This document shows, in pieces, positions 1,415 to 64,000 of a DNA stretch of 64,000 bases (its first letter is position 1; every line of letters starts with the position of its first letter). Source of the stretch: an uncultured Candidatus Bathyarchaeia archaeon. GTDB lineage: Archaea; Thermoproteota; Bathyarchaeia; TCS64; B23. The stretch is from the NCBI GenBank assembly GCA_964525955.1, contig CAZGKJ010000001.1:4069-68068 (forward strand). Reading direction: 5' to 3'. A model generated the notes under the pieces. The model saw only the letters and a program-made list of their open reading frames with translations. It was not told where the DNA came from and did no database searches. Made by a program: the position numbers and the translations under genes.

Positions 1415-1438
1415 TCACAGCCCTCTCCAAATCTCCGT

Positions 1439-1511: not shown

Positions 1512-1517
1512 CCTGAG

Positions 1518-3461: not shown

Positions 3462-3472
3462 CTTCGCTCCCT

Positions 3473-3480
3473 TTATATAA
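3473..3480 (+). promoter_or_regulatory. TATA box (TTTATATAA) about 30 bp upstream of the htpX-like start
   Basis: Sequence motif; the spacing is consistent with a leaderless archaeal transcript. Confidence 0.4.
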
Positions 3481-3503
3481 TACCCCTCCACTGAGGCGAT
3501 CTG

Positions 3504-10645: not shown

Positions 10646-10725
10646 GGTGTCTCGGAAACGTTTATAAGAGCGGTGAATATATATAATTTACGAATAGATA
10701 AATTATCCATATACTCCGGCCCGAG

Positions 10726-11664: not shown

Positions 11665-11843
11665 TCCCTTATCAGCTTCCTGATCTCCCCCATGTAGGCC
11701 TGATACTCCCTCTTCCTACAGTCGGAGCATAGATACCTGATCCTCCTCGAGGGGGTGACTATCCGCCGTCTCTCTATGATCCTTACCTCCTCCTCGGTTA
11801 GCTCTCTACCGCAGACTGCGCATCTCTTGGGCATTCTCCTCAC
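11661..11843 (-). CDS. Small zinc-ribbon protein (CxxC...CxxC), hypothetical
   Basis: 60 aa with 'CAVCG...CSDCR'; no further assignment is possible. Confidence 0.35.
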   Translation of the reverse strand: MRRMPKRCAVCGRELTEEEVRIIERRRIVTPSRRIRYLCSDCRKREYQAYMGEIRKLIRD

Positions 11844-12000
11844 CGATAAAGATGGGTTAGCCCTCCTCGGAGGCCTCAGCCTTCAGGAGCTCCTTCAGGG
11901 CTCTCCGCTCCTTTATCTCCTCGTAGACTATGAAGGCTGGCATGAAGACCCATATGGCGACCATGATCCAGAATAGCACCATGTCGATGTCCAAGCCCTC

Positions 12001-27004: not shown

Positions 27005-28462
27005 TCACACCTCCGACCTCTCAAGGTTGTATCTTTTGAAGATGGAGTTGAGCACCTCCTCAAGCGCCTGTGCCCTCTCCTCCGGCATCGGCTTGGGCTG
27101 ATGCTCCCTCAGCAGCCTCTCCACCCGTTCCTTGGCCCTGGTGATGATGTCCTTTGATCCGGCTTTCTTCCAGGCGTCTATGGTGAGTCTGCAGACCACA
27201 TCTGAGGGGATATATCTCTCTCTTCTGAAGTGCTTCATCGTATGCCTCTCACCCAGATAGTGGCCTCCTGGGCCCACCTTCTCTATGACGTCCAGAGCCA
27301 GGGTCTCCTCATCGACATCTATGCCCTCTAGGAGCCTATAGGCCATGGCGCACAGCTCGTCGTCGATGACAAGCTTCTCCAGGGACTGACAGTTCTCCTC
27401 AACCAGCATACCTGGGCCTGAGACTACGTTTACTCCCGTCAGCGCAGCCATCAAGATGCCGAGGGCTGACTCAAAGCAGCTCTGCCCGTCGACGACCTTT
27501 GAGTCGCTTAGGCCGAGGTATCCATGGGTTGGGAGTCCATAGTATTTCCCGATCTCGGCTCCTGCGCAGGCCGTCATCATCGCCTCTATGGCTCCAAGCC
27601 TCGCTGTGGCGTATCTCATGTCGAAGAGTGTTGGGGAGCCGCCGTAGACGATGGGTGTCCCAGCCCTCCTGAGCTGGGTGATGACGATGCCGGTGATGAT
27701 CTCAGCGTTCGACTGGACGAGGGTTCCGGCGAGGGTGGCGGGGCTTGTCGCCCCTATCTGAGGCGCCGGAATGATCTCAGCCGGTATCCCCCTGTCGGCG
27801 AGGTCTATGAGGTTTTGAGCCGTTACGTCGCCCCAGATGAGCGGTGATGTGGGGCAGCAGTCGAAGATGGCTCTGGGTCTGCGTCTCAACTCCTCTGGGC
27901 CTCCTACGGCTGCGTTTAGCATCTCAGCCATATCGATGAGGCCTCTCTTCGAGAATGCCCCGGTGATGATGGGCTTATCAGAATTCCTCAAAACGATATA
28001 CAGCCTATAGAGGTCTGCAACCACCTCTGGGACGTCTGAGGGGACGATGGCTGTGCTCTGAGCCTCGATGTGTTCAAGGGCATCGGCCAATCGCACCAGC
28101 TTCTCCAAGTCTCTTGAGGTTCCCCTCCTTATCTCTCCGGTCTCTGAGTCTAAGACGTATATGGCTGCTGAGCCTGGGTTGTAGACGACGTTGTCTCCTC
28201 CGATTAGGAGGGTCTTATCCCCGTCTCTGCTGTATAGCTCGATTTCGGATGGAGCCTTCTTCAGGCATTCAGTCGCCAGCTCCTCGGGTATCTTCACCCG
28301 TCTATCCTCCACTTCGCATCCATTTTCCCCAAGCAGTTTCAGGGCGTTTTCGTTTCTAACCTCTACGCCGACCCTCTCCAGAATCCTCATGGTTGAGGAG
28401 TGTATCTCCTCTATCTCCTCCCTCTCCAGAAGTCTGAATCCCCTAACCATGTCCTTCATCAA
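27005..28462 (-). CDS. MttB-superfamily methyltransferase (non-pyrrolysine quaternary-amine/trimethylamine:corrinoid methyltransferase-like)
   Basis: 485 aa with an MttB-like N-terminus ('...LLEREEIEEIHSSTMRILERVGVEV...') and a TIM-barrel body. The ORF is continuous with no in-frame TAG, so it belongs to the non-Pyl branch (MtgB/MtcB/MtpB-like). Confidence 0.7.
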   Translation of the reverse strand: MMKDMVRGFRLLEREEIEEIHSSTMRILERVGVEVRNENALKLLGENGCEVEDRRVKIPEELATECLKKAPSEIELYSRDGDKTLLIGGDNVVYNPGSAAIYVLDSETGEIRRGTSRDLEKLVRLADALEHIEAQSTAIVPSDVPEVVADLYRLYIVLRNSDKPIITGAFSKRGLIDMAEMLNAAVGGPEELRRRPRAIFDCCPTSPLIWGDVTAQNLIDLADRGIPAEIIPAPQIGATSPATLAGTLVQSNAEIITGIVITQLRRAGTPIVYGGSPTLFDMRYATARLGAIEAMMTACAGAEIGKYYGLPTHGYLGLSDSKVVDGQSCFESALGILMAALTGVNVVSGPGMLVEENCQSLEKLVIDDELCAMAYRLLEGIDVDEETLALDVIEKVGPGGHYLGERHTMKHFRRERYIPSDVVCRLTIDAWKKAGSKDIITRAKERVERLLREHQPKPMPEERAQALEEVLNSIFKRYNLERSEV

Positions 28463-28787
28463 TCTGCTCTCTAATCAATTAAGTTTGACGATAACCTCTC
28501 CAGTTGAGTATGAAGGGGTGGGGTCTCCATCACATCGCCCTGCATAGGCGTGGGATTTAGGGTGACGCTCTGGAAATAACTTTAAGTGTGAAGCTATACT
28601 TCTAGGCACCCACTCCCCTTAATTAGGAGCTGTTGTGAAACGCTTCTAAAAATGGTTGATATGCGAACTCTTAACGAGTTATTCTGGCCCTTTCCGTTCT
28701 GAATCTGACCAACTGGACTAATTCGTGGTAGAGGTTTTTAATGTCACTTGGATTTAACCCTAGAGGTTGAAGTATGTATTTCTCCAT

Positions 28788-31658
28788 CTAATATCTGACG
28801 GGATTTCGGGCTTCATGCTCTATATCCATGGGCCTCATCGAGAGAAGCTTTTCAACGGTCTCTAAGAAGTCTCTCGTTTCTCCTCTTCTATCCAACTCGT
28901 CTCGAAGCCATAGAGGATCTATAACAGGTATGCATTCATAGTCTATTACGTTAACGTCTAGAGCACCTTGACCAAGGTTTGTTCGACCGATAACCTCCAT
29001 ACTAGTGTAGGTGGTTATAGAGTTTAATGTAGCAAAGATGAAGCGTGGGTCTAGACTCTTATACTTATCTTTTAACCTTCCTCCGAAAAATCTCTTGTCT
29101 ATCTGCGCACCAGTAATATTGTTCATGTATATTGCGAAATTCTTGTGAATTGCATTTTTAAATATGAACATCGCTCCAGAGGTATCTGGCAATCTAACCC
29201 ACGTCGGCTCATCTATATATTTGACGATGGTTGGGAACCTCCTATTTGTTTTATGTTCTTCGATCACGAATCTATGGCACCATTCCACATAACGTTTAAT
29301 ACCAGGTGCATCTACATCATTAATATTCCCTACCCATATAACGTAATCATCCCTTCTCCGTCTAGGAAGTCTATCTATCCTATAAGTTGAACCTCGAATA
29401 TGTGCGAGTCTCATAAGAGGTCTTAAATACCGTTTTTCCAGCTTCAAAAGTGTTCTAGATATAACACTTTTAAGCTCTAGATAGTTTTCGTCCTCCCTAT
29501 AATACCTCCAGTACTTCGATGGGAGATAGAATAGTTCATTCGCATTAGTAGTGAGTCCTCGATATATTTCAAGCACATCTTTCAATAACACCATTGGTAT
29601 TTCATCTCTGATAAAACCGAATATAAGATTGAGGTATGTTTTTGATCCTCTGAATATACCCCACTTCCCTAGCCTCTCTTCAATCTCCTGAAGGGCTCTC
29701 TTTCTAACGGCTATAACTCTCATATCCTCATTCTCTAGGATCGAATAATTTTCAGCTTCGAGACTACACGAGTCTGCATAAGAGTAAAGACCCTCTATTC
29801 CCTCATAATACCTCTCGTTAGCTGTATAGTCCACAGATGGAGGTGGATCTCCTATTAAGCTTCGCAGAGGCTTCTTAAGGAAGATGAACCTTAATACATG
29901 ATCTGGACTCCTATCTTTTTCAGCAACTATGATATTAGTTATTATCTCAGCATCTTCAAACCACTTCTCAACAAGTGACTCCACAACATAGTGGATCATG
30001 AAGTTTTCCATAAGCCATCTCTTTAAAGGCGAACCATACTCAGCGTTCATCCAAGAGTTTTCAACTATAAACCCTAGTCTCCCCCCTTCCTCCAGTAGTT
30101 TCCCCCCTCCAACTAGGAAGTAAGCGTATATCGAAGCCTTCTTGCTCCAGCCTGAGATATCTGATACCGCCTTCATGAGATACTCCTTATATCTTCTGTC
30201 GTAAAACGCCATAGCCATCTCCTCTTGTCTGGTATACGGTGGATTGGTGACGACATAACTGTACCCTGGGGGGAGCTCTATTTTGAAGAAGTCGCCGTGA
30301 TGAATCTTAGGAGTATACCTGTACATTTTCTTAATCTCTTCAAGTGCTTGAATGTATAGGTTGATCTTGGAGAGCATGGAAGCTAGCTTATCTATGTCAA
30401 TCCCCTCAACGAACTCGAAGACATCCCTCTCTAAACCATATTTTATTCTCCAGAGGTTTAAAGCTCTGACCAGGAAAGTGCCAGAACCACAGGCTAGATC
30501 TAAAATGCGACCAGGTTTATCTAATGTAGCTGTGAGTATGAGGTCTACGATCTTTGTGTCTGTGTAATGCTGCCCTAAAAGATGTCTCCTCTCTTCATAA
30601 ATCAGCCCCTCGAAAATCCTACCGATCACGTCTACGTTTATCTCGCCCCACCGTATCTGATTAAGATAGGAGAGGAGTTGTTTTATCGATGATAAGGAAG
30701 GCTCTACGATAGGAAGTCTATCCACAACATTTGTGCCAAATATCTCCTCAAAGTCGCCGGTTCTCTCAATCGCATACTCAAATAACATATCGAATATTTT
30801 CTTAAATAGCTGTGCATCCGATATGTCGCCTATGGAGGAAAGGTTTTCACGTAGTTTAGCAGCCATTTCAGCATCTATACTTTGAAGCACCATATAGAAG
30901 AGCATTTTAAGCGATAAAGTGTAAAGCTGTTCCTTCAACATCAACATAAGATAGTTCCGAAGCTCGGAGTCATTTCGAGGGCTTTCAAGCCCCCTTTCCT
31001 TTCGCCAACTCTCAAAGCACTTTCTCACCTCTAATTCGCTTCGATATAAATACTCAAGCCTGGTTAACCCCCGTGATGCTCCCTCCTCAATATACCTTCT
31101 TATAGTATAGATAACCTCCGTGCTTAGATCAAGTGTTTTCCCTTCAAGGATTTCCCTAAACCTAAGTAAGAACATTTCAAGATTCCTTCTGGCTTCTCTA
31201 TTCACAGATATCTGCTTATAATCATTTATTGACCTAACCCATGGCATTATCTGAAATGGAAAATCAGAAACAGGAACCCAAATCCTTGTACGCCTCCCAT
31301 GAATATACTCCAAAAGAGTAGGTTGACGCTTCCTAAAAGTAATATATCTGAAGACTTTCAAATATCGCATGTTATGTGTCGCATAAAACTGTAAACCCAT
31401 GTTCTTCCTATACCATTCAGCATATCTTAAAGCCTGCTCGTTCAACTCAGGATCACTTAGTAGAATTTCCGGTCTCTTAACCTCGATCACAGCCACGGGT
31501 TCACCCTTATAGTAAAGTTTAACGTCAGGCTTACCGGAAGGGGTGCGCCAGTTGGCTTCGGCATCAAAGCCTAAACCTTCTCCTACTTCCTTAATAACAG
31601 AGATGAGTTCCGTTACATAGGTCTCTTCTGTAGGCTCCTCAACCATAATATTCAACAA
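28788..31658 (-). CDS. Type IIG restriction-modification enzyme (fused PD-(D/E)xK endonuclease + gamma-class N6-adenine DNA methyltransferase + TRD; MmeI-like)
   Basis: The N-terminus has 'GKPDVKLYYKGEPVAVIEVKRPE' (PD...EVK nuclease motif). The central MTase has motif I 'LDLACGSGTFL' and motif IV 'VVTNPPYT'. The 956-aa single polypeptide is markedly more AT-rich than its flanks. Confidence 0.75.
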   Translation of the reverse strand: MLNIMVEEPTEETYVTELISVIKEVGEGLGFDAEANWRTPSGKPDVKLYYKGEPVAVIEVKRPEILLSDPELNEQALRYAEWYRKNMGLQFYATHNMRYLKVFRYITFRKRQPTLLEYIHGRRTRIWVPVSDFPFQIMPWVRSINDYKQISVNREARRNLEMFLLRFREILEGKTLDLSTEVIYTIRRYIEEGASRGLTRLEYLYRSELEVRKCFESWRKERGLESPRNDSELRNYLMLMLKEQLYTLSLKMLFYMVLQSIDAEMAAKLRENLSSIGDISDAQLFKKIFDMLFEYAIERTGDFEEIFGTNVVDRLPIVEPSLSSIKQLLSYLNQIRWGEINVDVIGRIFEGLIYEERRHLLGQHYTDTKIVDLILTATLDKPGRILDLACGSGTFLVRALNLWRIKYGLERDVFEFVEGIDIDKLASMLSKINLYIQALEEIKKMYRYTPKIHHGDFFKIELPPGYSYVVTNPPYTRQEEMAMAFYDRRYKEYLMKAVSDISGWSKKASIYAYFLVGGGKLLEEGGRLGFIVENSWMNAEYGSPLKRWLMENFMIHYVVESLVEKWFEDAEIITNIIVAEKDRSPDHVLRFIFLKKPLRSLIGDPPPSVDYTANERYYEGIEGLYSYADSCSLEAENYSILENEDMRVIAVRKRALQEIEERLGKWGIFRGSKTYLNLIFGFIRDEIPMVLLKDVLEIYRGLTTNANELFYLPSKYWRYYREDENYLELKSVISRTLLKLEKRYLRPLMRLAHIRGSTYRIDRLPRRRRDDYVIWVGNINDVDAPGIKRYVEWCHRFVIEEHKTNRRFPTIVKYIDEPTWVRLPDTSGAMFIFKNAIHKNFAIYMNNITGAQIDKRFFGGRLKDKYKSLDPRFIFATLNSITTYTSMEVIGRTNLGQGALDVNVIDYECIPVIDPLWLRDELDRRGETRDFLETVEKLLSMRPMDIEHEARNPVRY

Positions 31659-31753
31659 TCATTAACTAAATACAACTTATAAACTAATCCAAATCGCCCT
31701 CCCTTGCTAAGGGTGTAAAGCCTAGCCTAAATAGAGGGAAAATTCTGGGGCCT

Positions 31754-32500
31754 TCATACTCCTATGCAGGGCGCCAGGTAGTAGATGAGCTTCCCCTTCG
31801 GTATCTCGAAGTTCAGCTTGATGGGCATATCCGTTGAGAGCTCCAGTGTGGCTACCTCGCTGGAGGCTGAGGCCGCATTTATGATGTCTTGGAGGTAGCT
31901 TAGGGTGAAGGTGGCTGAGCTCGGCTCCTCCACCTTCAGCTCCAATAGGTCTTCGGCCTCGAGTGTCCAGACGCTGGAGACGCTTCCGATGTCGCCCTCG
32001 GCGCTGATCTTGAATTCCTCCTCGTTGATCTCCAGCTTCACATGCTCCCCGACGAGGGAGGCATCCTTAATCGCCCTCTTCAGGCTTGGGGTCAGTATCC
32101 TCGCTGAGGCTTTGAAGAATATCTTCGGCGTCGGGGTCTCCTCTTCCAGGGGTTCGAGGAGGGGCATGAGGAATCTCCGCTTGTGGCCTCCCCTCATACA
32201 CTCTATGGAGAGCCTCCCCTCCTGGAGGGTCATCTTAACCTGCTCCCCCCTCTCAACCCTGTCGAGGAATTTCAGGAGCTCCCTTATGTTGACGGTCAGC
32301 CTCGTCTCCTCATCGCAGAGATATTCATCGAAGAAGTCCCTCGGCAATTCGAAGTCCACCATGGCGACGTGGCTTGGATCCATGGCGAGGAGCTTCATCT
32401 CCTCCTCATCGATGTTGAAGCTCCCCTCCTCCACGATGACGGAGAGGGCCTTAACGAGCCTCTTGAAGGCGTCTATGCTGGAGAGCTGAACCTCGAACAA
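31754..32500 (-). CDS. pcna: DNA polymerase sliding clamp PCNA
   Basis: A 248-aa protein with PCNA-like N- and C-terminal domains ('MFEVQLSSIDAFKRLVKALSVIVEEGSFNIDEEEMKL...'). Confidence 0.85.
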   Translation of the reverse strand: MFEVQLSSIDAFKRLVKALSVIVEEGSFNIDEEEMKLLAMDPSHVAMVDFELPRDFFDEYLCDEETRLTVNIRELLKFLDRVERGEQVKMTLQEGRLSIECMRGGHKRRFLMPLLEPLEEETPTPKIFFKASARILTPSLKRAIKDASLVGEHVKLEINEEEFKISAEGDIGSVSSVWTLEAEDLLELKVEEPSSATFTLSYLQDIINAASASSEVATLELSTDMPIKLNFEIPKGKLIYYLAPCIGV

Positions 32501-52340: not shown

Positions 52341-53216
52341 TTAAAGCTGTCGAGTTCTACTCCTCCAGAGGCTTAGCCTCCTCTCAGCCTCTGCTCTATG
52401 CTCCCTTATGAGGTTTGGAAGCCTCCTCACCAGGTTGAGGTTCTCCTCCAACCTCCCCCGGTATAGCTCACCGAGCCTTGGGTGGAGCTCCTCCAGCAGC
52501 CTGAGGCATCTCCGACCCATGGAGACGGCCTCCGGGCAGCTTGGGCTGCAGGGGAAGAAGTAGGAGACGAAGTAGGCCATGGCATTCGCTTCGCCCTCCT
52601 CCAGCTGTCTATAGGCTCTCTCCTCAACCTCTAAGCCCATGGATCTCTCCCTGGCGTATCGCTCCACGCAGCATTGAGGGTATCCGAGGAGTCTCCCCAT
52701 CTCAGCAACCCAATCGGCCTCAAGCTCCTCTGGATATGCCAGATATATGCCGAGGCCTCTCGGCCTCTTCATGGCCTCTCTCCTCAGCCTCTCCCTCCTA
52801 TCCATAAGCCTCCTCAGCCTCTTCTCGACGCCTCTCTCCCTGTATAGGTAGAGCTCCCTAACCGTCGGCCTCACCTCGTCTACCCGCCATCTGAGGCCGA
52901 GGCGCTCAGCCCATCCTATATGGGCCTTATACTCCTCCGAGGCCTCAACAACCTCTCTGTATGCCCTCCGCATGGCCCTCTTCACATCCCTGATGGCTCC
53001 TCTATCACCCCTCCTAATCCTTAGGAGGGTTGGATAGATCCTCTCGTCGATTATTCTCCCCATCTCCCCTCCGCTTGGGAGCTCGGCGGGTATGGTTATC
53101 TGGGAGCAGGGTCTGACGCCGAGGTAGACGAGTAGATAGTCCTCCAGCTTCACGCCGAGCCTCAGCCTACCGTCTTCGAGGAGCTCCTCCACGTCTCCCT
53201 CATCTAATCTCTTCAC
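52341..53216 (-). CDS. DUF483-family protein
   Basis: Conserved 'GYPQCCVERY' plus additional Cys ('FFPCSPSCPEA'). Confidence 0.4.
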   Translation of the reverse strand: MKRLDEGDVEELLEDGRLRLGVKLEDYLLVYLGVRPCSQITIPAELPSGGEMGRIIDERIYPTLLRIRRGDRGAIRDVKRAMRRAYREVVEASEEYKAHIGWAERLGLRWRVDEVRPTVRELYLYRERGVEKRLRRLMDRRERLRREAMKRPRGLGIYLAYPEELEADWVAEMGRLLGYPQCCVERYARERSMGLEVEERAYRQLEEGEANAMAYFVSYFFPCSPSCPEAVSMGRRCLRLLEELHPRLGELYRGRLEENLNLVRRLPNLIREHRAEAERRLSLWRSRTRQL

Positions 53217-53279: not shown

Positions 53280-53930
53280 TTACATGGGTGCTATCTTCAG
53301 GACTTGGAGGAAGAACTGCGCCCTGCCGGAGAGCATCGCCATCCTGAAGAGGACGGTGTTGCCGAAGTATGCTCCAAGGCCGATCATGATGATCCAGCGT
53401 CCAAGCCTCGTCGCATAGCCCATTCCACCCCTATGCTCCCATGTCAGGACGAAGTACATGACGGCGCAGATGGTTCCTATCGCTATGTAGATGTAGTTCC
53501 ACCAGTCAACAGCCCCCGCCCCAGTGGCCGGCGGGGTGATCGTCGAGATCACCTGGTTTGTGATGTTGGGTATGAGGACTCCCCTCATACCGAGTCCGAA
53601 GCCGGCTCCTACGAGGATGGCGATTGGATATCGGCTTATCCACCTATACTTCGGCGTCAATAGGAAGAACATCATGAAGCCGAGGATGATGGGTATGACG
53701 TACCAGACCTTCCCCTGCATTAGAGGCGGCCCAACCATCCTTATCGTCGTCGTAATCGTCGTCCTCACGAGCATGATGGCCAGCATCAATCCGACGTAGG
53801 TGTGCTCCGCGAACCTGAAGGCAGGATTCTCCTTATACAGCGGGTAGCTGTAGATCATCAGCATCAGCAGCCATGCAATCCACAGGCCAGCGATTCCAGC
53901 TGGATCGGTTGGGTAGGGCATCCACCTCAC
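53280..53930 (-). CDS. Uncharacterized polytopic membrane protein, cassette A subunit 4/4 (paralog of 61190..61816)
   Basis: About 6 hydrophobic helices. The motifs 'FRFAEHTY', 'PKYRWISRYPIAILVGAGFGLGMRG' and 'GRWIIM...YFGNT' are shared with the cassette-B protein. Its stop overlaps the upstream gene. Confidence 0.5.
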   Translation of the reverse strand: MRWMPYPTDPAGIAGLWIAWLLMLMIYSYPLYKENPAFRFAEHTYVGLMLAIMLVRTTITTTIRMVGPPLMQGKVWYVIPIILGFMMFFLLTPKYRWISRYPIAILVGAGFGLGMRGVLIPNITNQVISTITPPATGAGAVDWWNYIYIAIGTICAVMYFVLTWEHRGGMGYATRLGRWIIMIGLGAYFGNTVLFRMAMLSGRAQFFLQVLKIAPM

Positions 53931-54766
53931 CTCCTCCTACCCCTGCTGGCGAAGTAGCCGATGTTCGCCAGCACTACGGCTATGATGACGAGGATGTGGG
54001 AGATGTTTATGGCTCCCATCCTGATGGTTGCCTCACCAGGCTCTCCGATGAGCTTCTCCAATTCAGCTCCTCCCCTGACTCCGACGCTCATACCGAAGAG
54101 GACTCCGGACTTGTAGAAGGGCATGTAGCTGGAGCCCAGCATCGCGATCCCTATCTCGGCGACGGGTACACCATAGGGGATGCGCCACTGCCTGATGTAG
54201 TAGTCGCAGACGTCGCCGGTGTCTCCGGAGAGAACCAGCTTGATATCCGTCGCCTTGTCGACGTTCTTCATCATCGGAATCTCGTCGAGGGGCGTCCCAT
54301 AGTTATCCGTCTCGAATATGCTTCTAATCGAGGAGGCGAGCTGGGCTACGGCCGCCTCCTGGTAGGGGTAGTATCCAAGGTAGACGTAGTCCTCTCCATA
54401 CTTTAGGTCCTTGAAGTAGTCCTCGCACCTCCTCAGAACCTCCTCATAGCTCAGGTCGACGTCGTAGTAGGCTCCCCAGAAGATGATCTTGGCGCCCTCC
54501 TTTATCAGGAGCTTTGTGCAGGCGGCGAAGGCTGGCATACACTCAGGCCAGGCGCTCACTCCGAAGGCTATATTCATCACGACTACGTCTCCAGGCTCCA
54601 CCATCTCTATTATGCCCTCATAGAGGTCTCTGGTGGATGGGCTGATGCTGATGGGGAACATGATGGGCCTGATGAAGGGTATCATGAGGCCGATGAACAG
54701 TATCCAGTAGAAGACTCGGCGATCAATCCTCGCCAGCTTCTCCCAGAAGGTGAGCTCCTCACTCAT
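53927..54766 (-). CDS. Uncharacterized bitopic membrane protein (N- and C-terminal TM, central soluble domain), cassette A subunit 3/4 (paralog of 61813..62655)
   Basis: Hydrophobic N-terminus 'VFYWILFIGLMIPFI' and C-terminus 'ILVIIAVVLANIGYF'. The central domain aligns along its length with the cassette-B protein. Confidence 0.5.
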   Translation of the reverse strand: MSEELTFWEKLARIDRRVFYWILFIGLMIPFIRPIMFPISISPSTRDLYEGIIEMVEPGDVVVMNIAFGVSAWPECMPAFAACTKLLIKEGAKIIFWGAYYDVDLSYEEVLRRCEDYFKDLKYGEDYVYLGYYPYQEAAVAQLASSIRSIFETDNYGTPLDEIPMMKNVDKATDIKLVLSGDTGDVCDYYIRQWRIPYGVPVAEIGIAMLGSSYMPFYKSGVLFGMSVGVRGGAELEKLIGEPGEATIRMGAINISHILVIIAVVLANIGYFASRGRRR

Positions 54767-55425
54767 TCACCAGCCACCTCCCCATAGAATCCTCTCTCCC
54801 TGCCCAGCAGCGCCCTGAATCCGTAGGCGAGCATGCCGAAGGCTGCGACGATTAGGAAGCATCTCATCCCAGGCACCTGACCATAGTCGAGGAACCATCG
54901 CCCTATCACCGGTATGCCGCTCCAGATGACTCCCCCTATCGGGGCGTTGGTTAGGATGACGAAGCAGCCTGCGATGAGCAGCAGGGCCGCATCTATGTTC
55001 CTCGCCCTGAAGGCCCTGTAGGCGGCTGAGAAGATGTAGAATCCCGTGATGGCGTATAGAGTTTGGCCCAGGCTTGTGTAAGGCCACGTGAAGAGCCAGT
55101 TGTAGAGGAGGTTAGTCATGGCATCCTGCTTTGTGACATAGCCCGCGAGGCCACTGAAGAGAGTGATGAGGAAGATGATCCATAGCCAGATACTGAAGGG
55201 CCATAGTCCAGCCCTCCTCTTCTGGATGTTCTTGGCATGCTCAGACAGCAGCCTTATGGCTCCCAATGCGATGGAGATGTTCGCGATGATGGTGGCCCAG
55301 GTTCGAAGCTCCTCAGCGACGTTCCAGGTGCCTATGAAGAAGAACTCTATGAACATCAGTATGGTGACTATGGCGGTTATGAGGTAGACAACCTCCCTCC
55401 TCAAAACCTCAGCCATATTCACCAC
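54763..55425 (-). CDS. Uncharacterized polytopic membrane protein, cassette A subunit 2/4 (paralog of 62658..63293)
   Basis: About 6 hydrophobic helices. 'AYRAFRARNIDAALLL' is matched by 'AYKALRIRNIDSLFLF' in cassette B. Confidence 0.5.
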   Translation of the reverse strand: MVNMAEVLRREVVYLITAIVTILMFIEFFFIGTWNVAEELRTWATIIANISIALGAIRLLSEHAKNIQKRRAGLWPFSIWLWIIFLITLFSGLAGYVTKQDAMTNLLYNWLFTWPYTSLGQTLYAITGFYIFSAAYRAFRARNIDAALLLIAGCFVILTNAPIGGVIWSGIPVIGRWFLDYGQVPGMRCFLIVAAFGMLAYGFRALLGRERGFYGEVAGE

Positions 55426-56231
55426 CTCAAAACGTTTATCAGCGCTGGATTCCTGGCGAAGCCGAGTATGAAGCCGATGATCATCAAGGCGATCAATATG
55501 AACTTCATTATGTCCTCACCTCTAAGGCAGCCGAGGATGTCTGGATCCTTGCTGATGGAGGCTCCGGCGGCGTATAGCTCCTCGGCCAGCAGGACGTAGT
55601 CGCAGGTGGCGACGAGGAAGGGCATCTGGTGGGTGTTGGCGGTTCCACCGATCTGGAAGGCTCCGATGGTGTTGCCGCCCTCACCCATTACGACGGACTC
55701 GTAGTAGAAGCCTCCTATCAGGAAGTTTGTTGCAGGCCTCTCCCTCTGGAAGTAGCCGAGGACGGCCGTCAGGTATGGTGACTGACCGGCGATGAAGTGT
55801 ATCATGTCTGGGGAGAACTCCTCAGGCTTCCCCTCAGCCATGTAGGCTGTTCGGAGAGTCTCCTCTGTGAGGGGGAGCGCCGTCGGGATGGGCATGAAGA
55901 CGTCGAGCTTCACACCCGTCCTGGCGCACTCCCTCGCTATGTAGCCGAGGATGCTTATAGCAGCCAGAACCTGTGGACCCTGCGTGGGGTCGTTCAGGTC
56001 TCCGGCGATGCCGGGTGTGAACATCACCGGCCTACCCATCTCAGCGGCCCTGCCGATCCCCTCAGGTATGGCGGCCATGGGTGGAAGCGTTCTGACCGGG
56101 ATCTCCCTTCCCTTCCTGCCGAGATACATGAATATGTAGAAGAGGATGTAGGAGAGCACCAGTATTACGAGGGCCATCCCTCTCCCTGAGACGATGATGG
56201 CCATATCCTCTTCCTCCCTTTTCCCCACCAT
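55419..56231 (-). CDS. Uncharacterized bitopic membrane protein, cassette A subunit 1/4 (paralog of 63303..>64000)
   Basis: N-terminal TM, then a soluble domain ('...GRAAEMGRPVMFTPGIAG...IGGTANTHQMPFLVATCDYVLLAEE...'), then a C-terminal TM. It aligns with the cassette-B protein ('GRAVEMGRPVFDIIGMG...IGGTARLYQIPFFAAVCDYVLIGEE'). Confidence 0.5.
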   Translation of the reverse strand: MVGKREEEDMAIIVSGRGMALVILVLSYILFYIFMYLGRKGREIPVRTLPPMAAIPEGIGRAAEMGRPVMFTPGIAGDLNDPTQGPQVLAAISILGYIARECARTGVKLDVFMPIPTALPLTEETLRTAYMAEGKPEEFSPDMIHFIAGQSPYLTAVLGYFQRERPATNFLIGGFYYESVVMGEGGNTIGAFQIGGTANTHQMPFLVATCDYVLLAEELYAAGASISKDPDILGCLRGEDIMKFILIALMIIGFILGFARNPALINVLRW

Positions 56232-57498: not shown

Positions 57499-59334
57499 TC
57501 ACACCAACTCCCTCAGCTTATCCTCCGGGTACATATCGATGTCGAGGAACCATTTAAGCAGAGTCTCCCTCCGCTCTTTATCGTTCTCCGGAAGCTGTAG
57601 GGGTCTACCCCTTGCGTCGAGGAGTATGCCTACGACGCCTCCCATGGCTGTTCCCTCCACCCTCTTTCCAGGCCCCCTCCCAACGTCGAAGCCCCTCCTC
57701 GGCGATATGGTCACCTTCGCCTCCTCCCTCTCCGGCAGCTCTATACGCTTAATCTCTCCGAAGTGCATCTCCTCCGTCAGGGTCTCCCCATTCGGCATCT
57801 CGATCTCAACCGTCATGACTGGGTCACCCTTATTCGCAACGCCTCTCGGCGCGATGACTGTTCCAAGTCTGACGAGGCAGTCCTTGTCGAAGATCTGCCA
57901 GGCCGCCTCCCAGTATACGGTTGATAGGACTCCGAGGTGGGGCATCATGAAGACGCTGTCCTGGAACATCCATGTTATGCCCTCAGGTTGGAAGGCGTCT
58001 GTGAGGATGAGCATCGACTGGACTCTGCGTGGGGCGTGGCTCAGCAGTCCTCCGGTTCCGGCGATTATGTCGATCTTCATGAGGTCTATGTAGGTCTCGG
58101 CCAGCGCCTGCTCGAACATGTCGCTTATCGTCCTCTCTATCTTTGCGCCCTTCAGCCTCGTCGCTATGGTCTTGTGATGCTCCAATCCGAGTCTCAGGGC
58201 TTCACGGGCGACGGAGTGCTCGACGATGAGGTCGTCGAGGGTCTGTGGGATGGTTGTCGGCCTAATCATCTTATTCATCAGTCTGCTCGCCACCTCCTCC
58301 TCATCCATTTCGAAGGGGAGCCATCGCATTATGTTCTCGATGCCAGCCGTCTTCATCACGTTGCAGATGCTGTAGCTCATACCCAGGTTGGCGCTTACGC
58401 TCCTGACGAACTTGCCCTCGAAGACGGAGTAGACATTCGTCGTAGCCCCTCCGAGGCCGACGCCGAGGACGTTCTTCTCGAAGACCTTGGCGATGAGCTG
58501 CATCGCCATCCCCTCACCGGCTGGCGTAGGCATTATGTCGATGTCAGTCCACTTCATCAGCTTCAGATAGCCAGGTGCATGGCTCATCACGTGCTCCATG
58601 AAGAGCTCATGGATCGCCCTACGGGCGGGCTCAGTGTTCTCCACCTCTAGGACTGGTCTGATGTTGTCGACGATGGTGAGCGCGAATACTTCGCCGAGCA
58701 GCTTCTTTATCTGAGGCCTCAGATCCCTGTTTCCGGCGTAGACTATTGGGAGCTTATAGCCGAGGCCGAGCCTGGGCTTAGGCTCAGCCGCCTTTAGCAT
58801 CTCGGCGATCTCCATCACGTGGGTTGTGGCTCCCCCATCGGTTCCTCCGGCGAGTAGGATCATGTCGGGTCTGAGGCTTCTAATCCTCTGAATCTTCTTG
58901 TAGACCGGTCTCCCATCGTCTTGGGCGATGACGTCCATAACTATGGCTCCTGCTCCGAGGGCAGCCCTGTTGGCGCTCTCAGCCGTCATGGTCTTTATGA
59001 GGCCTGCCACCATCATCTGTAGGCCTCCACCAGCGCTGCTGGTTGTGCAGTATAGGTCGACGCCTCTCTCACCGTCGAAGGGGACGACTATGCCGCTTCC
59101 ATCCTCAGCCAGTATCTTATGTCCCGTGAGCTCCTCCACCTCCCTGACGGCGTTCCTGACGCCGAGGGTGACATCCTCATAGGGGGCCTCAACCGTCGTG
59201 GGTGCTTCACCTGCTATGACGAATCTCCATCCCTCCGGCTTGCGCTCGAAGAATCTCGCCTTAGTTGTGGTGCTGCCTACATCTGTGGCGAGGATATACT
59301 TCATCTCCTCCTTCGGCTTCCTAAGCCTCGCCAT
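57499..59334 (-). CDS. MutL/EutA-like ASKHA-superfamily ATPase (611 aa)
   Basis: The N-terminal 'ILATDVGSTTTKARF' matches the glutamate-mutase MutL / EutA-reactivase / BadF-BcrA-type phosphate-1 motif. The length is consistent with a duplicated actin-like fold. Confidence 0.55.
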   Translation of the reverse strand: MARLRKPKEEMKYILATDVGSTTTKARFFERKPEGWRFVIAGEAPTTVEAPYEDVTLGVRNAVREVEELTGHKILAEDGSGIVVPFDGERGVDLYCTTSSAGGGLQMMVAGLIKTMTAESANRAALGAGAIVMDVIAQDDGRPVYKKIQRIRSLRPDMILLAGGTDGGATTHVMEIAEMLKAAEPKPRLGLGYKLPIVYAGNRDLRPQIKKLLGEVFALTIVDNIRPVLEVENTEPARRAIHELFMEHVMSHAPGYLKLMKWTDIDIMPTPAGEGMAMQLIAKVFEKNVLGVGLGGATTNVYSVFEGKFVRSVSANLGMSYSICNVMKTAGIENIMRWLPFEMDEEEVASRLMNKMIRPTTIPQTLDDLIVEHSVAREALRLGLEHHKTIATRLKGAKIERTISDMFEQALAETYIDLMKIDIIAGTGGLLSHAPRRVQSMLILTDAFQPEGITWMFQDSVFMMPHLGVLSTVYWEAAWQIFDKDCLVRLGTVIAPRGVANKGDPVMTVEIEMPNGETLTEEMHFGEIKRIELPEREEAKVTISPRRGFDVGRGPGKRVEGTAMGGVVGILLDARGRPLQLPENDKERRETLLKWFLDIDMYPEDKLRELV

Positions 59335-59394: not shown

Positions 59395-60735
59395 ATGGGC
59401 GTAGAGGAGCTCTGGAGATTTAAGGCTCCGAGGATAGTTGTGGAGCCTCCAGGCCCCAGGGTGAGGGAGATACTCAAGGCCGTCGGTCTCCCACCCTCAG
59501 CCTATAGGCATCCCCTCGTCGAGGAGGCTGGAGGCGTCTGGATCAGGGATCCGGATGGAAATGTCTTCCTCGACTTCATCTCAAGCCGATGCGTCGTCAA
59601 CGTCGGCCATAGGCATCCGAGGGTGCTGGAGGCCATCGGACGTCAGATGGAGGCGGCAACCCATGGCTGGGTGGAGGCGAGGCATAGGCTGGATAGGGAG
59701 CTGGCGAGGATCACCCCAGGCAGCTTTGAGAAGAGAGTCTACTACGCCCTAACTGGCTCCGCCGCTAATGACTGCGCCCTCAAGCTTGCGAGGTGGGCGA
59801 CGGGTCGGCCCTACATCATCGCCTTCGCAGGAGCCTTCCACGGCATGACCTATGGAGCCCTCAGCCTAAGCTCCTATAAGACCTGGATGATCAGGGGCTT
59901 CGGCCCAAATCTCCCAGGCGTCTATCACATGCCCTATCCCAACTGCTATAGATGCCCCTTTGGCCTTCAATATCCAGACTGCGATCTAAGATGCCTCCAC
60001 TACATAGAGGACTACGCCTTCAAGAGCTATCTCCCACCAGATGAGGTGGCAGCAGTCTTCATAGAGCCGATAGCTGGAGACGCCGGCTGGATCGTCCCAC
60101 CGGAGGGCTATCTACAGGGCCTGAAGGAGCTCTGTGAGAGGTATGGAATCCTCCTCGTCGATGAGGAGGTTCAGACTGGCTTCGGCAGGACTGGACGATG
60201 GTTCGCCTGCGAGCATTGGAGTGTGGAGCCCGACATCATCATCCTGGGTAAAGCCCTTGGAGGTGGTGTTCCCCTAAGCGCCGTCGTCGCCAGGGCGGAG
60301 CTCCATATCCATGGCGGAGAGCATTTCAGGCATGGCCACACCTTCGATGCCTTCCCCCTCGGCTGTGCGGCCGCCCTGGCCAACATCGAGGTGATAGAGG
60401 AGGAGGGCCTCATCGAGAGGGCTGAGAGGCTTGGAGCCTATCTCATGGATAGGCTTAGGGAGATGATGGGGAGGCATAGCATCGTCGGCGATGTGAGGGG
60501 TAGGGGACTCCTCATCGGCGTTGAGATCGTCGGCGATAAGGCCTCCAAGAGGCCTGATGCCGAGGCCGCTGACCGGATATGCGTCGAGGCCTTCAAGAGG
60601 GGTCTATACATCATAAGGATGGGCTCCTTTGGAACAGGCGTTCTCAGGGTGGCTCCGCCGCTGGTCATAACGAGGGAGCAGCTCGATGAGGCCCTCAGAA
60701 TCCTCGACGAGTCTATAGGGGCGGTGGAGGCTTAG
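59395..60735 (+). CDS. Class III PLP-dependent aminotransferase (GABA/acetylornithine aminotransferase family)
   Basis: '...YALTGSAANDCALKLAR...' and 'LLVDEEVQTGFGRTGRWFA', with '...IIILGKALGGG' as the PLP-lysine region. Confidence 0.8.
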   Translation: MGVEELWRFKAPRIVVEPPGPRVREILKAVGLPPSAYRHPLVEEAGGVWIRDPDGNVFLDFISSRCVVNVGHRHPRVLEAIGRQMEAATHGWVEARHRLDRELARITPGSFEKRVYYALTGSAANDCALKLARWATGRPYIIAFAGAFHGMTYGALSLSSYKTWMIRGFGPNLPGVYHMPYPNCYRCPFGLQYPDCDLRCLHYIEDYAFKSYLPPDEVAAVFIEPIAGDAGWIVPPEGYLQGLKELCERYGILLVDEEVQTGFGRTGRWFACEHWSVEPDIIILGKALGGGVPLSAVVARAELHIHGGEHFRHGHTFDAFPLGCAAALANIEVIEEEGLIERAERLGAYLMDRLREMMGRHSIVGDVRGRGLLIGVEIVGDKASKRPDAEAADRICVEAFKRGLYIIRMGSFGTGVLRVAPPLVITREQLDEALRILDESIGAVEA

Positions 60736-61112
60736 AGGAAGGGGATTAGACGCCTCCAACCCTTCTTTTTCCCAGCTTCTCCAGATTGGGTGGTCTCCTC
60801 AGTCTCCGCCGCCTCAACCTCCTCCGCCGACATCTCCTCGAGGATCGTTATTAGACGCTCTATGTTCTCCCTCTTCTCGAATATCCTGAAGAACTTCTCC
60901 CCGCTTATGCTGATCTCCTCTCCGAGGGCTGGTAGGAATGGTGAGATGAAGAACTTTCCGAGCTCCCCTCCAATATATACGAGGGGTTTGAAGCTCTCGA
61001 GGAACAGTATGGCTGCAGCGTCCATCCCATATTTATGGATGACGCTCGCCACCTTTCTGATAACCCTCTCCTCCTCCTCGGGGGTGATCTCGAGTCGATC
61101 CCACCAGAACAA
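60732..61112 (-). CDS. Hypothetical protein (126 aa, acidic C-terminal tail)
   Basis: ORF only. It has its own TATA-like element (TTATAAAG, read on the minus strand) ~61125-61135. Confidence 0.3.
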   Translation of the reverse strand: MFWWDRLEITPEEEERVIRKVASVIHKYGMDAAAILFLESFKPLVYIGGELGKFFISPFLPALGEEISISGEKFFRIFEKRENIERLITILEEMSAEEVEAAETEETTQSGEAGKKKGWRRLIPFL

Positions 61113-61189: not shown

Positions 61190-61816
61190 TTAGTGGATGA
61201 TTCCCAGCCAGTCCCTCAGCAGGAATATGATTCTCCCCTGATACATCGAGAACCTCGTCATTATCGTGTTTCCGAAGGCTCCTCCGAAGGCGGCGAGCAT
61301 CATCCATCTCCCTATCTTCGGAATCCAGCCTGCAGCCCCCTTGTGTATCCCCTCGTATGTGAAGATGAAGTGCGTTAGAGCCGTGACTGTTCCAACGAAG
61401 ACTATTATGTTGTTGAGTGTTCCGAGGGGCGTCGTCGCTATTAGGGGCTTGGCCGTAGCTGCGATCTGCTTGATGAAGTCTGCGTGGATGGCTCCCCTAA
61501 TCGATATGCCGACTCCTATCCCGACGAGGAAGGCGATGGGGTAGCGGTATATCCAGTAGTATTTGGGGTGATATCTGGTGTAGATGAGGATGCCGAGGAT
61601 TATCGGAATCCAGTAGCTCGGCTCCCCACCGGCTATATGAGTCCATCCATATAGGATGACGTTCTTAACACCCATCACTATGGCGTGGCCGGCCGCTGCT
61701 CCTATGAAGGTGTACTCGGCGAATCTGAAGAATATGTTGTCCCTGAAGGCGTAGCTTGTCGCCACTATTGTGAAGAAGGCTGCGATCCAGACGCCAACAT
61801 CCGTTGAGACCATCAC
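61190..61816 (-). CDS. Uncharacterized polytopic membrane protein, cassette B subunit 4/4 (paralog of 53280..53930)
   Basis: Shares 'FRFAEYTF', 'PKYYWIYRYPIAFLVGIGVGISIRG' and 'GRWMML...AFGNT' with its cassette-A partner. Confidence 0.5.
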   Translation of the reverse strand: MMVSTDVGVWIAAFFTIVATSYAFRDNIFFRFAEYTFIGAAAGHAIVMGVKNVILYGWTHIAGGEPSYWIPIILGILIYTRYHPKYYWIYRYPIAFLVGIGVGISIRGAIHADFIKQIAATAKPLIATTPLGTLNNIIVFVGTVTALTHFIFTYEGIHKGAAGWIPKIGRWMMLAAFGGAFGNTIMTRFSMYQGRIIFLLRDWLGIIH

Positions 61817-62655
61817 TTCTCACCCTCCCTCTTAGATAATCTGGAGCCCCAGTAGGAGATGTTGCCGATGATGATGAAGATGAGGACGATGGTTTGAGTT
61901 GCGCTCAGGATGTCCGTCGCCCTCATGGCGTCCCCTGGGTGGTGGGTCATATACTCCATGTCCGCAGCCCCCTTGATGCCGTCGAGGATGCCCTTGAGGG
62001 CTCCGGCGTCGTAGTATGGCTTTAGGGATGGGGTCATCATGCTTAGGAATCCGCCGACGACTGGGAGCTTGTATCGGCTGTAGGCCTGGTAGACCCATCC
62101 CTCGGCTATCCCCCCGCTCGTCGTTAAGTAGGCCACCAGGGCGAAGCTCTCCGGGCCGGTTATCTCCTGGAGTAGCGGTATCTGCTCGATGGATGTTCCA
62201 TAGTAGTCCTCCTTCACCGCCGTGTGTATGTCGCCGAGGACGGCTGCCATAGCCGTCTGCTCCCCGGCTATGTATCCGAGGAATACATAGTCCCTCCCAT
62301 ACTCTGCTCCATAGTTCTTCTCAGGCTTCACCTTCTCCATGATCAATGGATACATCATCGATCCCTCCAGCGCCGTCGCCATGATGACGATCTTCAGATG
62401 CTTCTCGAACATCTGGTGGAGGGCTGCGATGGCGCATGGGCCGAGGGTTGGATAGCCCCCTGAGCCGAATCCTATGTCGAAGAGGACTATTGAGCCCTCT
62501 GGTAGGGAGTCGACGGTGTTATACCAGTCCTTAGACATCTTCCCAACCATTATTGGCAGTCCGAAGGGTCTGATCGCTGGAACTATCATCGCTATCAGAA
62601 CGATCGTCAGAACTATCTCCCTTGGGATAGCCGCTAACTTCTCCCACATGGACAT
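61813..62655 (-). CDS. Uncharacterized bitopic membrane protein, cassette B subunit 3/4 (paralog of 53927..54766)
   Basis: Same N-TM / soluble / C-TM architecture as its cassette-A partner, and it aligns along its full length. Confidence 0.5.
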   Translation of the reverse strand: MSMWEKLAAIPREIVLTIVLIAMIVPAIRPFGLPIMVGKMSKDWYNTVDSLPEGSIVLFDIGFGSGGYPTLGPCAIAALHQMFEKHLKIVIMATALEGSMMYPLIMEKVKPEKNYGAEYGRDYVFLGYIAGEQTAMAAVLGDIHTAVKEDYYGTSIEQIPLLQEITGPESFALVAYLTTSGGIAEGWVYQAYSRYKLPVVGGFLSMMTPSLKPYYDAGALKGILDGIKGAADMEYMTHHPGDAMRATDILSATQTIVLIFIIIGNISYWGSRLSKREGEK

Positions 62656-62657
62656 CT

Positions 62658-63293
62658 CTACGCCCTCCCCAAATATCCCCTCTCCAATCCCAGGATGGTT
62701 CTGATGCCTAGAACTACTGCGCCTATGCCGACTCCGATCCTTATGCCCCTATAGGCTCCGCTTATAATCGTCTTGAATATCCACTCCCTGGTGTAGAAGA
62801 ATCCTGGGAGGGCGGCTGGGAACATCGGGGTGTTTCCGAGGACGACGAAGATGGCTGTTAGGAATAGGAATAGGGAGTCGATGTTCCTTATCCTCAAGGC
62901 CTTGTAGGCTCCTATAGCCATGTAGAAGCATAGGGATGAATACATCGTTGCGCCGAGGGGTAGCATTATGGCGTTGTATATCCACTTATACTGCCAGCTT
63001 GCATCGAACTTCCCAGTTGATAGGCCGACTACGACGAATACTATCAGCATGAATAGGAGCCATCCACTTAGGGGCCATAGCTCCCCCCTCTCAGCTATAC
63101 GCTTCCCATGAACTCTGAATAGGTTGACGGCTCCAACTCCCAGGGCGAAGGCGGTGACGACGATCCCCCAATTCTTCAGAACCGTGAATGTCCCCCTTAT
63201 GGCTGGGACGGTTGTGTAGAAGTCGAGCACCGCTATCACGCCAACTATGAAGGTTATTAGAAGGGGGATATACTTCCTAACAACCTCCGACAT
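62658..63293 (-). CDS. Uncharacterized polytopic membrane protein, cassette B subunit 2/4 (paralog of 54763..55425)
   Basis: Hydrophobic profile and shared motifs with its cassette-A partner. Confidence 0.5.
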   Translation of the reverse strand: MSEVVRKYIPLLITFIVGVIAVLDFYTTVPAIRGTFTVLKNWGIVVTAFALGVGAVNLFRVHGKRIAERGELWPLSGWLLFMLIVFVVVGLSTGKFDASWQYKWIYNAIMLPLGATMYSSLCFYMAIGAYKALRIRNIDSLFLFLTAIFVVLGNTPMFPAALPGFFYTREWIFKTIISGAYRGIRIGVGIGAVVLGIRTILGLERGYLGRA

Positions 63294-63302
63294 ATTCCCA
63301 CC

Positions 63303-64000
63303 TCATATACTCATAAGCTGTGAGACCCATGGGAGACCTGCCGTAGCCAGTATCGCGCCGATGACCCCGAGGATGATGGCGGCTATCTTATACCAGTCCT
63401 GGCAGGCTATTGAACCTGTTTGGAGGGGGTCTCCAGATAGGTAGGCTCCAGCTGCGAATGTCTCCTCACCTATTAGGACGTAGTCGCAGACGGCTGCGAA
63501 GAAGGGTATCTGATATAGCCTCGCCGTCCCCCCGATCTCTAAGGCCCCCAATCTATCGAAGGTCTCGGCGAACATCATTGACTCAGCCCAGAAGGGGCCG
63601 ACCATTATCACGGAGGCGGGCTTCAGCCTCGAAGCCATGCCGAGTATTCCGCTGGCCCAGGCGAATTGGGTTCCTGAGAGGTAGGGGAGCTGCTCATCCA
63701 CATTTAGCTCCTCTATCTTACCCTCAGCTAGGTATCCCTCCCTAACCATCTCTATGGCCACGGGCATCACGTCGACCGATGCCTGTGGGGCGTATAGCTT
63801 CGCCCCAAGCCTTGCACATAGGTGGGCGACGTAGTTTAGAACCGATAGTCCAGCGACTGTTTGGGTTGCATATATGTCGGTGAATGTCCCCATCCCTATT
63901 ATGTCGAATACGGGCCTCCCCATCTCAACGGCTCTTCCAACCGCCTCCTCCATGGCGTCTAAGGCTGGCAGCCGCCTGATCCTCACCTTACCCCTCTTCC
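63303..64000 (-). CDS. Uncharacterized bitopic membrane protein, cassette B subunit 1/4 (paralog of 55419..56231); N-terminus lies beyond the window end
   Basis: The reading frame stays open to position 64000 ('...KRGKGVRIRRLPALD...'). It aligns with the cassette-A protein starting from that protein's residue ~45, so about 40+ residues and any upstream genes are outside the window. Confidence 0.5.
   Translation of the reverse strand, partial: KRGKVRIRRLPALDAMEEAVGRAVEMGRPVFDIIGMGTFTDIYATQTVAGLSVLNYVAHLCARLGAKLYAPQASVDVMPVAIEMVREGYLAEGKIEELNVDEQLPYLSGTQFAWASGILGMASRLKPASVIMVGPFWAESMMFAETFDRLGALEIGGTARLYQIPFFAAVCDYVLIGEETFAAGAYLSGDPLQTGSIACQDWYKIAAIILGVIGAILATAGLPWVSQLMSI

Follow-up and report, generated by a model that had tools for sequence, protein, structure and literature searches.

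Two related four-gene membrane cassettes and a linked ASKHA ATPase in a Bathyarchaeia archaeon

A stretch of 64,000 nucleotides (nt) from an uncultured Candidatus Bathyarchaeia archaeon (assembly GCA_964525955.1, contig CAZGKJ010000001.1, positions 4,069 to 68,068; hereafter the window) carries two sets of four membrane-protein genes, which are the subject of this analysis. Cassette B (61190 to beyond 64000) ends the window and cassette A (53280-56231) lies downstream of it, both on the minus strand (Table 1). Their genes fall into four families: F1, bitopic proteins of type DUF6754; F2, proteins with six transmembrane (TM) helices; F3, a second bitopic family; and F4, a second six-TM family. 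Both cassettes display the order F1-F2-F3-F4, and their products were named B1 to B4 and A1 to A4, respectively. A single pair of genes coding for an ASKHA ATPase of the MutL/GlmL family (MutL below) and for a soluble protein of 385 amino acids (aa; P385) is located between cassettes B and A. The initial annotation of cassette B, made from the sequence alone, was correct as to its four minus-strand genes, their positions and their order, with B1 cut by the window end. The complete form of B1 (260 aa) was present on contig L001 (1793-2575), which is 97% identical. Neighbouring genes overlap by 7 nt at the A1/A2 junction and by 4 nt at each of the A2/A3, A3/A4 and B3/B4 junctions, and are separated by 9 nt at B1/B2 and 2 nt at B2/B3; such tight packing, seen in both cassettes, is typical for subunits that are made together. 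Membership of DUF6754 was clear for B1 and A1, both of which exceeded the gathering threshold of PF20539 (27 bits). No Pfam, NCBIfam or PADLOC model matched F2, F3 or F4, and NCBIfam had no match for F1 or the DUF483 protein (Table 1) either.

Table 1. Position and properties of the cassette genes and of other features in the window (K+R, lysine plus arginine)
Feature	Position	Strand	Description
B1 (F1)	63303->64000	-	bitopic DUF6754 protein; PF20539 1.1e-68, 231.6 bits; about 29 N-terminal residues beyond the window end
B2 (F2)	62658-63293	-	211 aa; six hydrophobic peaks; predicted N-in/C-in (hydropathy, K+R bias)
B3 (F3)	61813-62655	-	280 aa; bitopic; Rossmann-like domain predicted outside the cell
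B4 (F4)	61190-61816	-	208 aa; six hydrophobic peaks; predicted N-out/C-out
A1 (F1)	55419-56231	-	270 aa; DUF6754; PF20539 3e-71, 239.9 bits; AlphaFold predicted local distance difference test score (pLDDT) 91.6
A2 (F2)	54763-55425	-	220 aa; six TM
A3 (F3)	53927-54766	-	279 aa; AlphaFold pLDDT 90.5
A4 (F4)	53280-53930	-	216 aa
S126	60732-61112	-	126 aa; small, acidic; conserved fifth gene
Class-III aminotransferase	59395-60735	+	separates S126 from MutL in the window and in L001
MutL/GlmL-family ASKHA ATPase	57499-59334	-	611 aa; PF13941 4e-119; C-terminal extension of about 125 aa
P385	56340-57497	-	385 aa; soluble; starts 1 nt after the MutL stop; N-terminal barrel-sandwich hybrid domain
DUF483 protein	52341-53216	-	291 aa; PF04467 2e-9; usual last gene of the supercluster
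PCNA gene	31754-32500	-	flanks the low-GC island
Open reading frame of 956 aa	28788-31658	-	N6_Mtase and Eco57I-type methylase domains
Low-GC island	about 28000-32000		guanine plus cytosine (GC) fraction 0.43 vs 0.57 elsewhere
MTTB-family homologue	27005-28462	-	trimethylamine-type, corrinoid-dependent methyltransferase; 7e-108; flanks the low-GC island

Comparison of corresponding proteins by BLASTP gave 38.4% identity over 232 aa for A1/B1 (E 5e-49), 31.2% for A2/B2 (E 2e-28), 27.4% for A3/B3 (E 1e-42) and 35.7% for A4/B4 (E 5e-36). Because E values ranged from 5e-49 to 2e-28, the similarity between the cassettes is not a matter of composition and, judged from sequence, cassette B is almost certainly a true paralogue of cassette A. 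This paralogy had been proposed at identity levels of 35-45%; the relationship itself was confirmed, and the identity figure had to be corrected to the 27-38% measured here. Scanning genomes with A1 and metagenomes with B1 yielded a total of 134 loci (designated below by L numbers). In a neighbour-joining tree built on the concatenated F1-F4 proteins (midpoint-rooted and unbootstrapped), cassettes A and B each formed a clade and were closer to one another than either was to the main bacterial group. The B clade was deeper and more diverse than the A clade, and L132, a sequence of unknown origin, was placed beside it. The apparent position of both clades should be regarded as indicative only.

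Duplication at the level of the cassette was supported. Cassettes A and B were found together in the window, L001, L004, L008 and L076. Cassette B, MutL and P385 were present without cassette A in L077, L080, L084 and L131; MutL, P385 and cassette A were present in L005, where cassette B was absent within 4 kb upstream, and L010, a 1-Mb contig, contained cassette A alone. Co-occurrence and substitution of the cassettes, between which the initial annotation had proposed to distinguish, were thus both encountered among the loci surveyed. Locus L104 harboured two divergently oriented B-type cassettes (607-3497 on the minus strand and 9583-11844 on the plus strand), one about 48% and the other about 75% identical to cassette B of the window, from which it follows that cassettes were multiplied more than once. 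Some Bathyarchaeia carry the A copy as an additional paralogue; the B-type layout (B1-B4, S126, MutL, P385) is recurrent and commoner.

The gene order F1-F2-F3-F4 was retained in more than 100 loci. It was found in Bathyarchaeia, one metagenome-assembled genome of Culexarchaeia, Symbiobacterium, Cloacimonadota, Poribacteria and the unclassified bacterial locus L016. Verrucomicrobiota displayed the permuted order F2-F3-F4-F1, and Armatimonadota were represented only by a short contig (L022) carrying S126 and F1. Overall, the operon was shared by archaea and bacteria, the latter with at least five phyla. Family F4 comprised 2096 representative clusters at 50% identity (E<=1e-3) and family F2 at least 2599 clusters at 90% identity, all relatives of the latter being annotated as hypothetical. 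In Cloacimonadota (L017-L074, L135 and L136), F1 was located C-terminally to a signal peptide and an ectodomain (about 690 aa), giving a protein length of about 950 aa, a second large F1 gene followed F4 (bigF1-F2-F3-F4-bigF1'), and F3 reached about 395 aa through an insert of about 115 aa. The F1 proteins of Poribacteria contained two LysM domains, the NCBIfam matches of their ectodomain being only of generic LysM type, and the first external loop of F2 in Verrucomicrobiota (L027:617-2395) was enlarged by an insert of about 350 aa. Repeated 'DG..WEK' motifs give this insert a propeller-like look; it had no Pfam match.

Membrane topology was deduced from the distribution of K+R and from natural variants carrying additional segments. 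Because TM1 of F1 is preceded in bacteria by an ectodomain (about 690 aa in addition to a signal peptide, or a pair of LysM domains) and because K+R were enriched after TM1 (2.9, vs 1.6 before it), the Rossmann-like domain of F1 is predicted to be cytoplasmic. The K+R counts of F3 were 3.0 before TM1, 0.4 after TM1 and 3.4 after TM2, and this family is predicted to have both termini inside and its domain outside the cell. The loop K+R sums of F2 were 11.7 for an N-in model vs 5.0 for the opposite one, and F2 of L016 had one more TM at its N-terminus, with RMVPSRFRK after it; together with the first-loop insert of L027, these features point to an N-in orientation. For F4, an N-out orientation is predicted from extra terminal TM helices: a TM7 followed by EKRPWPK in L004 and L008, and an N-terminal TM preceded by NARR in L027. 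The two halves of the cassette, F1 plus F2 and F3 plus F4, would accordingly be antiparallel, the soluble domain of F1 being inside and that of F3 outside, with F2 N-in and F4 N-out. The 'pseudo-symmetric machine' put forward in the initial annotation is plausible in this antiparallel form only, with halves facing opposite ways.

The positions conserved in at least 93% of 165 F1 sequences were mostly situated just after strands or at helix N-termini; they include G60, R61, E64, G74, R163, G173, F175, E178, E184, Q202 and P204, as well as C210, D211, Y212, E217 and E218. Conserved residues of F3 were G124, D126, G131, D154, G229, G232 and E237, in addition to N268 in TM2. When placed on the structure models, the conserved residues of F1 and F3 appear to cluster at the C-terminal ends of strands, where proteins of this fold usually bind their ligands. 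A near-invariant motif, Y136-x3-R140-A-R142, was identified in a predicted cytoplasmic part of F2, along with H63, W177 and R188, and G84, F160, G186 and R196 were conserved in F4. It is worth noting that A-type and bacterial F3 proteins share an N-terminal motif before TM1, [WF]E[RK]L..[LI]-D-R-R-[WVI]-[IV]-Y, in which R16 was found in 103 of 109 and R17 in 61 of 109 sequences. The D-R-R may be a signal resembling those of twin-arginine translocation (Tat), which the B lineage would have lost, but this interpretation was judged weak since B-type proteins carry P-R-E at the same position.

The initial annotation went further and derived all eight proteins from two ancestral families. According to this nested model, F3F4 arose as a tandem copy of F1F2, a single bitopic-plus-polytopic pair, and the cassette so formed was later copied as a whole, resulting in a pseudo-symmetric machine. 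For the bitopic pair, profile comparison with hhalign gave a weak and stable match. Four alignment variants yielded scores of 30-32 (P 1-2e-3, probability 14-22%) over a constant stretch, approximately residues 46-152 of A1 and 39-139 of A3: the first alignments scored 29.9 (P 0.002), the extended ones 31.9 (P 9.8e-4, probability 21.8%, 93 columns, A1 50-152 and A3 43-139) and larger sets 30.5-31.5. When restricted to the soluble domains, the score was 27.4, vs a maximum of 23.0 after column shuffling (0 of 100 reaching the observed value) and 12.9 for the reversed control. The alignment was in register with predicted helix 0, strand 1, helix 1, strand 2, helix 2 and strand 3, and the AlphaFold models of A1 and A3 followed the same plan: a TM, a helix, six strand-helix units and a TM. 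With alignments limited to Bathyarchaeia, the F1/F3 match dropped to P 0.14; the C-terminal halves alone gave no profile signal for either F1/F3 or F2/F4, and pairwise BLASTP of A1/A3 and A2/A4 found nothing beyond nine-residue seeds (E about 0.9). Remote homology between F1 and F3 is plausible, the odds being slightly in its favour, and the signal is suggestive rather than a proof because Rossmann-like folds often cross-match weakly.

The polytopic pair gave a different picture. F2 and F4 are alike in length (both about 210-220 aa) and in the placement of their six hydrophobic peaks, and early hhalign runs returned P values of 0.027, 0.009 and 0.006 over TM2 and TM3. With 16 diverse sequences, P was 0.1 and the match moved to a different region. 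After addition of 150 diverse F4 representatives, the score was 16.0 (P 0.14) with a non-colinear alignment, below both the shuffled (26.5) and the reversed (23.7) null. The correlation between hydropathy profiles was non-discriminating as well (0.54, vs 0.45 for the reversed control). Homology between F2 and F4 was thus not supported at the sequence level, a non-significant profile score being the very outcome that the initial annotation had named as speaking against its proposal.

The motifs on which the proposal had been founded were of no help either. All quoted strings exist: TRLGRWIIM in A4, VIGRWFLDY in A2, KIGRWMML in B4, VCDYYIRQW in A3, TCDYVLLAEE in A1 and VCDYVLIGEE in B1. However, 'CDY' was near-invariant in F1 (C in 112, D in 110 and Y in 112 of 113 sequences) and lineage-specific in F3 (C in 9, D in 11 and Y in 32 of 67). 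In the AlphaFold models, it occupies strand 6 of A1 (residues 210-212) and the start of helix 4 of A3 (187-189), so that these rare F3 occurrences are not structurally equivalent to those of F1 and cannot serve as a mark of shared ancestry. Likewise, 'G[KR]W' was conserved in F4 only (64, 63 and 54 of 67 for its three positions), the corresponding positions of F2 having kept the Trp (65 of 66) but not the G (15 of 66) or the R (8 of 66). Of the reduction to two ancestral families, the duplication of the cassette thus stands, the kinship of F1 and F3 is weakly supported and that of F2 and F4 is unsupported, leaving the older tandem duplication half supported at best. The nested model benefits from the stable F1/F3 match with its identical predicted secondary-structure plan, from the similar size and peak positions of F2 and F4, and from halves that appear flipped as whole units, as expected from the fixation of an ancestral dual-topology module. 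Against this, deep and 16-sequence comparisons of F2 with F4, the silent C-terminal halves, the motifs and the hydropathy profiles make the full model unlikely, even if it survived better than the other alternatives considered below.

Several genes accompanied the cassettes. S126 followed B4 in 25 of the 31 assessable loci, and homologues were detected in L016 (a bacterium), L022 (Armatimonadota) and L007. Because those of L016 and L022 precede F1, this small protein, for which no Pfam or NCBIfam match was found, belongs to the system in both domains of life. MutL was located within 2.5 kb after B4/S126 in 10 of the 20 assessable loci. Visual inspection revealed the phosphate-1 motif DVGSTTTK in its N-terminal part and further Gly-rich motifs of ASKHA type. 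Its scores remained below the cut-offs of the GlmL equivalog NF040745 (218 vs 475 bits) and of another NCBIfam equivalog (214 vs 600), and no B12-mutase subunit was matched among the cluster genes and the flanking genes scanned. All 14 P385 homologues matched RnfC_N (best E 4e-8), the copy of the window scoring 19.5 bits, under the cut-off of 25.6; P385 also resembles weakly the phosphate-binding part of NanE-type TIM barrels (E 0.013). In Symbiobacterium, the genes were rearranged to F1-F4, MutL, P385. A second ASKHA/385-aa pair upstream of B1, which the initial annotation had considered possible, was not found in L001, where two divergent genes for small DUF3792-like membrane proteins are located instead; MutL and P385 were also absent from the 9.6-10 kb upstream of B1 in L076, L080, L081 and L091. 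Genes for small DUF3792-like membrane proteins with four helices adjoin cassettes in L001 (960-1742) and L004 (216-620, 4165-4614 and 9397-9810), and the three copies of L004 bracket B and A.

The gene for a DUF483 protein followed A4 in 9 of 11 assessable A-type loci. The protein is rich in Cys (GYPQCC, CSPSCP). Since this gene directly follows P385 in L084, cassette A seems to have been inserted, or elsewhere lost, between P385 and the DUF483 gene. The class-III aminotransferase gene looks like a local insertion because most related loci are devoid of it. B12-binding radical-SAM genes adjoin cassette A of Bathyarchaeia in L005 (8292-9743), L013 (5995-7455), L008 (13481-15001, minus strand) and L009 (7430-8779, minus strand). 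Such genes were also found downstream of the operon in at least eight loci of Cloacimonadota, either right after bigF1' or after a Rex-like repressor gene, which itself follows the operon in 36 Cloacimonadota loci. The radical-SAM neighbours of Bathyarchaeia and Cloacimonadota were only 20-25% identical, and the window contained none. Neighbourhoods in Poribacteria, Verrucomicrobiota, Symbiobacterium and L016 displayed no common theme.

Taken as a whole, these data are best explained by a paralogous operon whose products assemble into a complex with a ligand-handling role, to which we assign a probability of roughly 0.55. Assembly of the four proteins into a complex is probable. Such a complex would be heteromeric, with 16 helices in two antiparallel halves: F1 (N-terminus outside, cytoplasmic Rossmann-like domain) would pair with an N-in F2, and F3 (N-terminus inside, external Rossmann-like domain) with an N-out F4. 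It may act, speculatively, as a translocation or coupling system. In this scheme, F3 would bind a substrate outside the cell, F2 and F4 would provide a membrane path of 12 helices and F1 would represent the cytoplasmic site. The ATPase (MutL), P385 and S126 might additionally dock to F1 in archaea and Symbiobacterium, and cassettes A and B would probably differ in ligand specificity while sharing one ATPase pair. Transport as such is a tentative suggestion, less likely than not, based on architecture and gene linkage. A bolder proposal would define a new class of membrane machines, with antiparallel halves each derived from one 'bitopic Rossmann + 6-TM' module, homologous ligand-binding domains on opposite membrane faces and, in archaea and some Firmicutes, a drive of GlmL-type ASKHA rather than ABC, P-type or V-type nature; we consider it quite improbable.

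A number of observations weigh against the ligand-handling complex. Its formation was deduced from operon structure alone, and by charge alone the orientation of F4 is poorly defined (loop K+R 7.5 vs 5.9). Few conserved charged residues were present in the TM segments. Searches of Pfam, NCBIfam and PDB linked F1-F4 to no transporter, redox or secretion family. Additionally, the loci of Cloacimonadota and Poribacteria had neither MutL nor P385 within 10 kb, and therefore the ATPase is not a universal partner.

Among the alternatives in which the cassette has another function, a machine of the cell envelope for anchoring, building or remodelling a surface layer, in which the ASKHA protein would serve as an actin-type organiser (compare MreB/MreCD/RodZ and PilMNO), was the less improbable. 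The LysM domains of F1 in Poribacteria, the signal peptide and large ectodomain of F1 in Cloacimonadota, whose motifs suggest FN3-like repeats despite the absence of Pfam matches, and the external insert of F2 in Verrucomicrobiota are all in agreement with it. However, ectodomains are lacking in the archaeal core proteins, MutL is placed in the hydantoinase/GlmL and not in the actin branch of ASKHA proteins, and the genes outside the cluster are inconsistent across phyla; moreover, Bathyarchaeia are not known to contain peptidoglycan. Even less credit can be given to a cobalamin- or redox-linked membrane system, be it for corrinoid uptake or loading or as an Rnf/Nqr-like ion-coupled complex: the ATPase family includes B12-mutase accessory proteins, P385 has an RnfC_N-type domain, B12-binding radical-SAM and Rex-like genes are neighbours and antiparallel 6-TM pairs recall RnfA/RnfE, but the radical-SAM neighbours are dissimilar between phyla and lacking in the window, their class is probably abundant in these genomes, and no Rnf-Nqr, FMN-binding, Fe-S or B12-binding Pfam domain was found in F1-F4 or P385.

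Elsewhere in the window, the open reading frame of 956 aa probably represents a type IIG restriction-modification gene gained by horizontal transfer. It is situated in the low-GC island, which is flanked by the MTTB-family homologue and the PCNA gene.

Four co-inherited membrane families form a fixed operon common to Bathyarchaeia and at least five bacterial phyla. Three of these families are outside Pfam and NCBIfam, and a solved relative was found for none of them: sequence searches of PDB with the proteins or profiles of F1-F4, MutL and P385 returned no relatives. The PADLOC models for anti-phage defence gave only one match, a spurious one (E 0.009). In the literature library searched, nothing was found on DUF6754, PF20539, PF13941 or the combination of ASKHA with a barrel-sandwich domain, and nothing related on GlmL with glutamate mutase. 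The predicted architecture, with a Rossmann-like domain on each membrane face, six-TM subunits in opposite orientations and a recurrent link to an ASKHA ATPase, was unmatched by characterised transporter, respiratory, secretion or defence families in the libraries searched, and the system is outside every known kind tested. Symbiobacterium thermophilum, which is cultivable and has a single-copy version, makes it experimentally approachable, and the A and B paralogues sharing one ATPase constitute a natural handle on specificity.

Comparison with known systems revealed partial likenesses. B1 and A1 share the DUF6754 (PF20539) domain with bacterial relatives, in which it ends large surface proteins; this family is uncharacterised in Pfam, and its fixed partners F2, F3 and F4 matched no Pfam or NCBIfam model in the searches made. 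With the GlmL/MutL accessory proteins of B12-dependent glutamate mutase and ornithine aminomutase, the likeness lies in the ATPase of the window, which matches Pfam MutL over its full length. However, this ATPase is far under the equivalog cut-offs, has an additional C-terminal domain of about 125 aa and is linked to membrane cassettes instead of mutase subunits. ABC, TRAP and TTT systems with anchored binding proteins differ in that the cassette is devoid of ABC ATPase, DctQM and TctAB permease domains; F3 has one lobe instead of two and is anchored at both ends, and the sole nearby ATPase is of ASKHA type. With respect to inverted-topology pairs such as NqrD/NqrE, RnfA/RnfE and those of EmrE type, the K+R bias was strong in F2 and weak in F4, and the extra terminal TM helices and inserts of L016, L027, L004 and L008 were in line with opposite orientations. 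Rnf and Nqr complexes differ in sequence: no match to Rnf-Nqr (PF02508), FMN_bind, Fe-S or flavin-binding models was found in Pfam or NCBIfam (E<=0.1), no relation in sequence or fold was detected, and mutual homology of F2 and F4 was not demonstrable. What the cassette and its partners have in common with these complexes is a peripheral subunit, P385, with a barrel-sandwich domain of RnfC_N/NqrA_N type, two polytopic subunits of about 200-220 aa in opposite predicted orientation, and a bitopic subunit with a predicted external alpha/beta domain.

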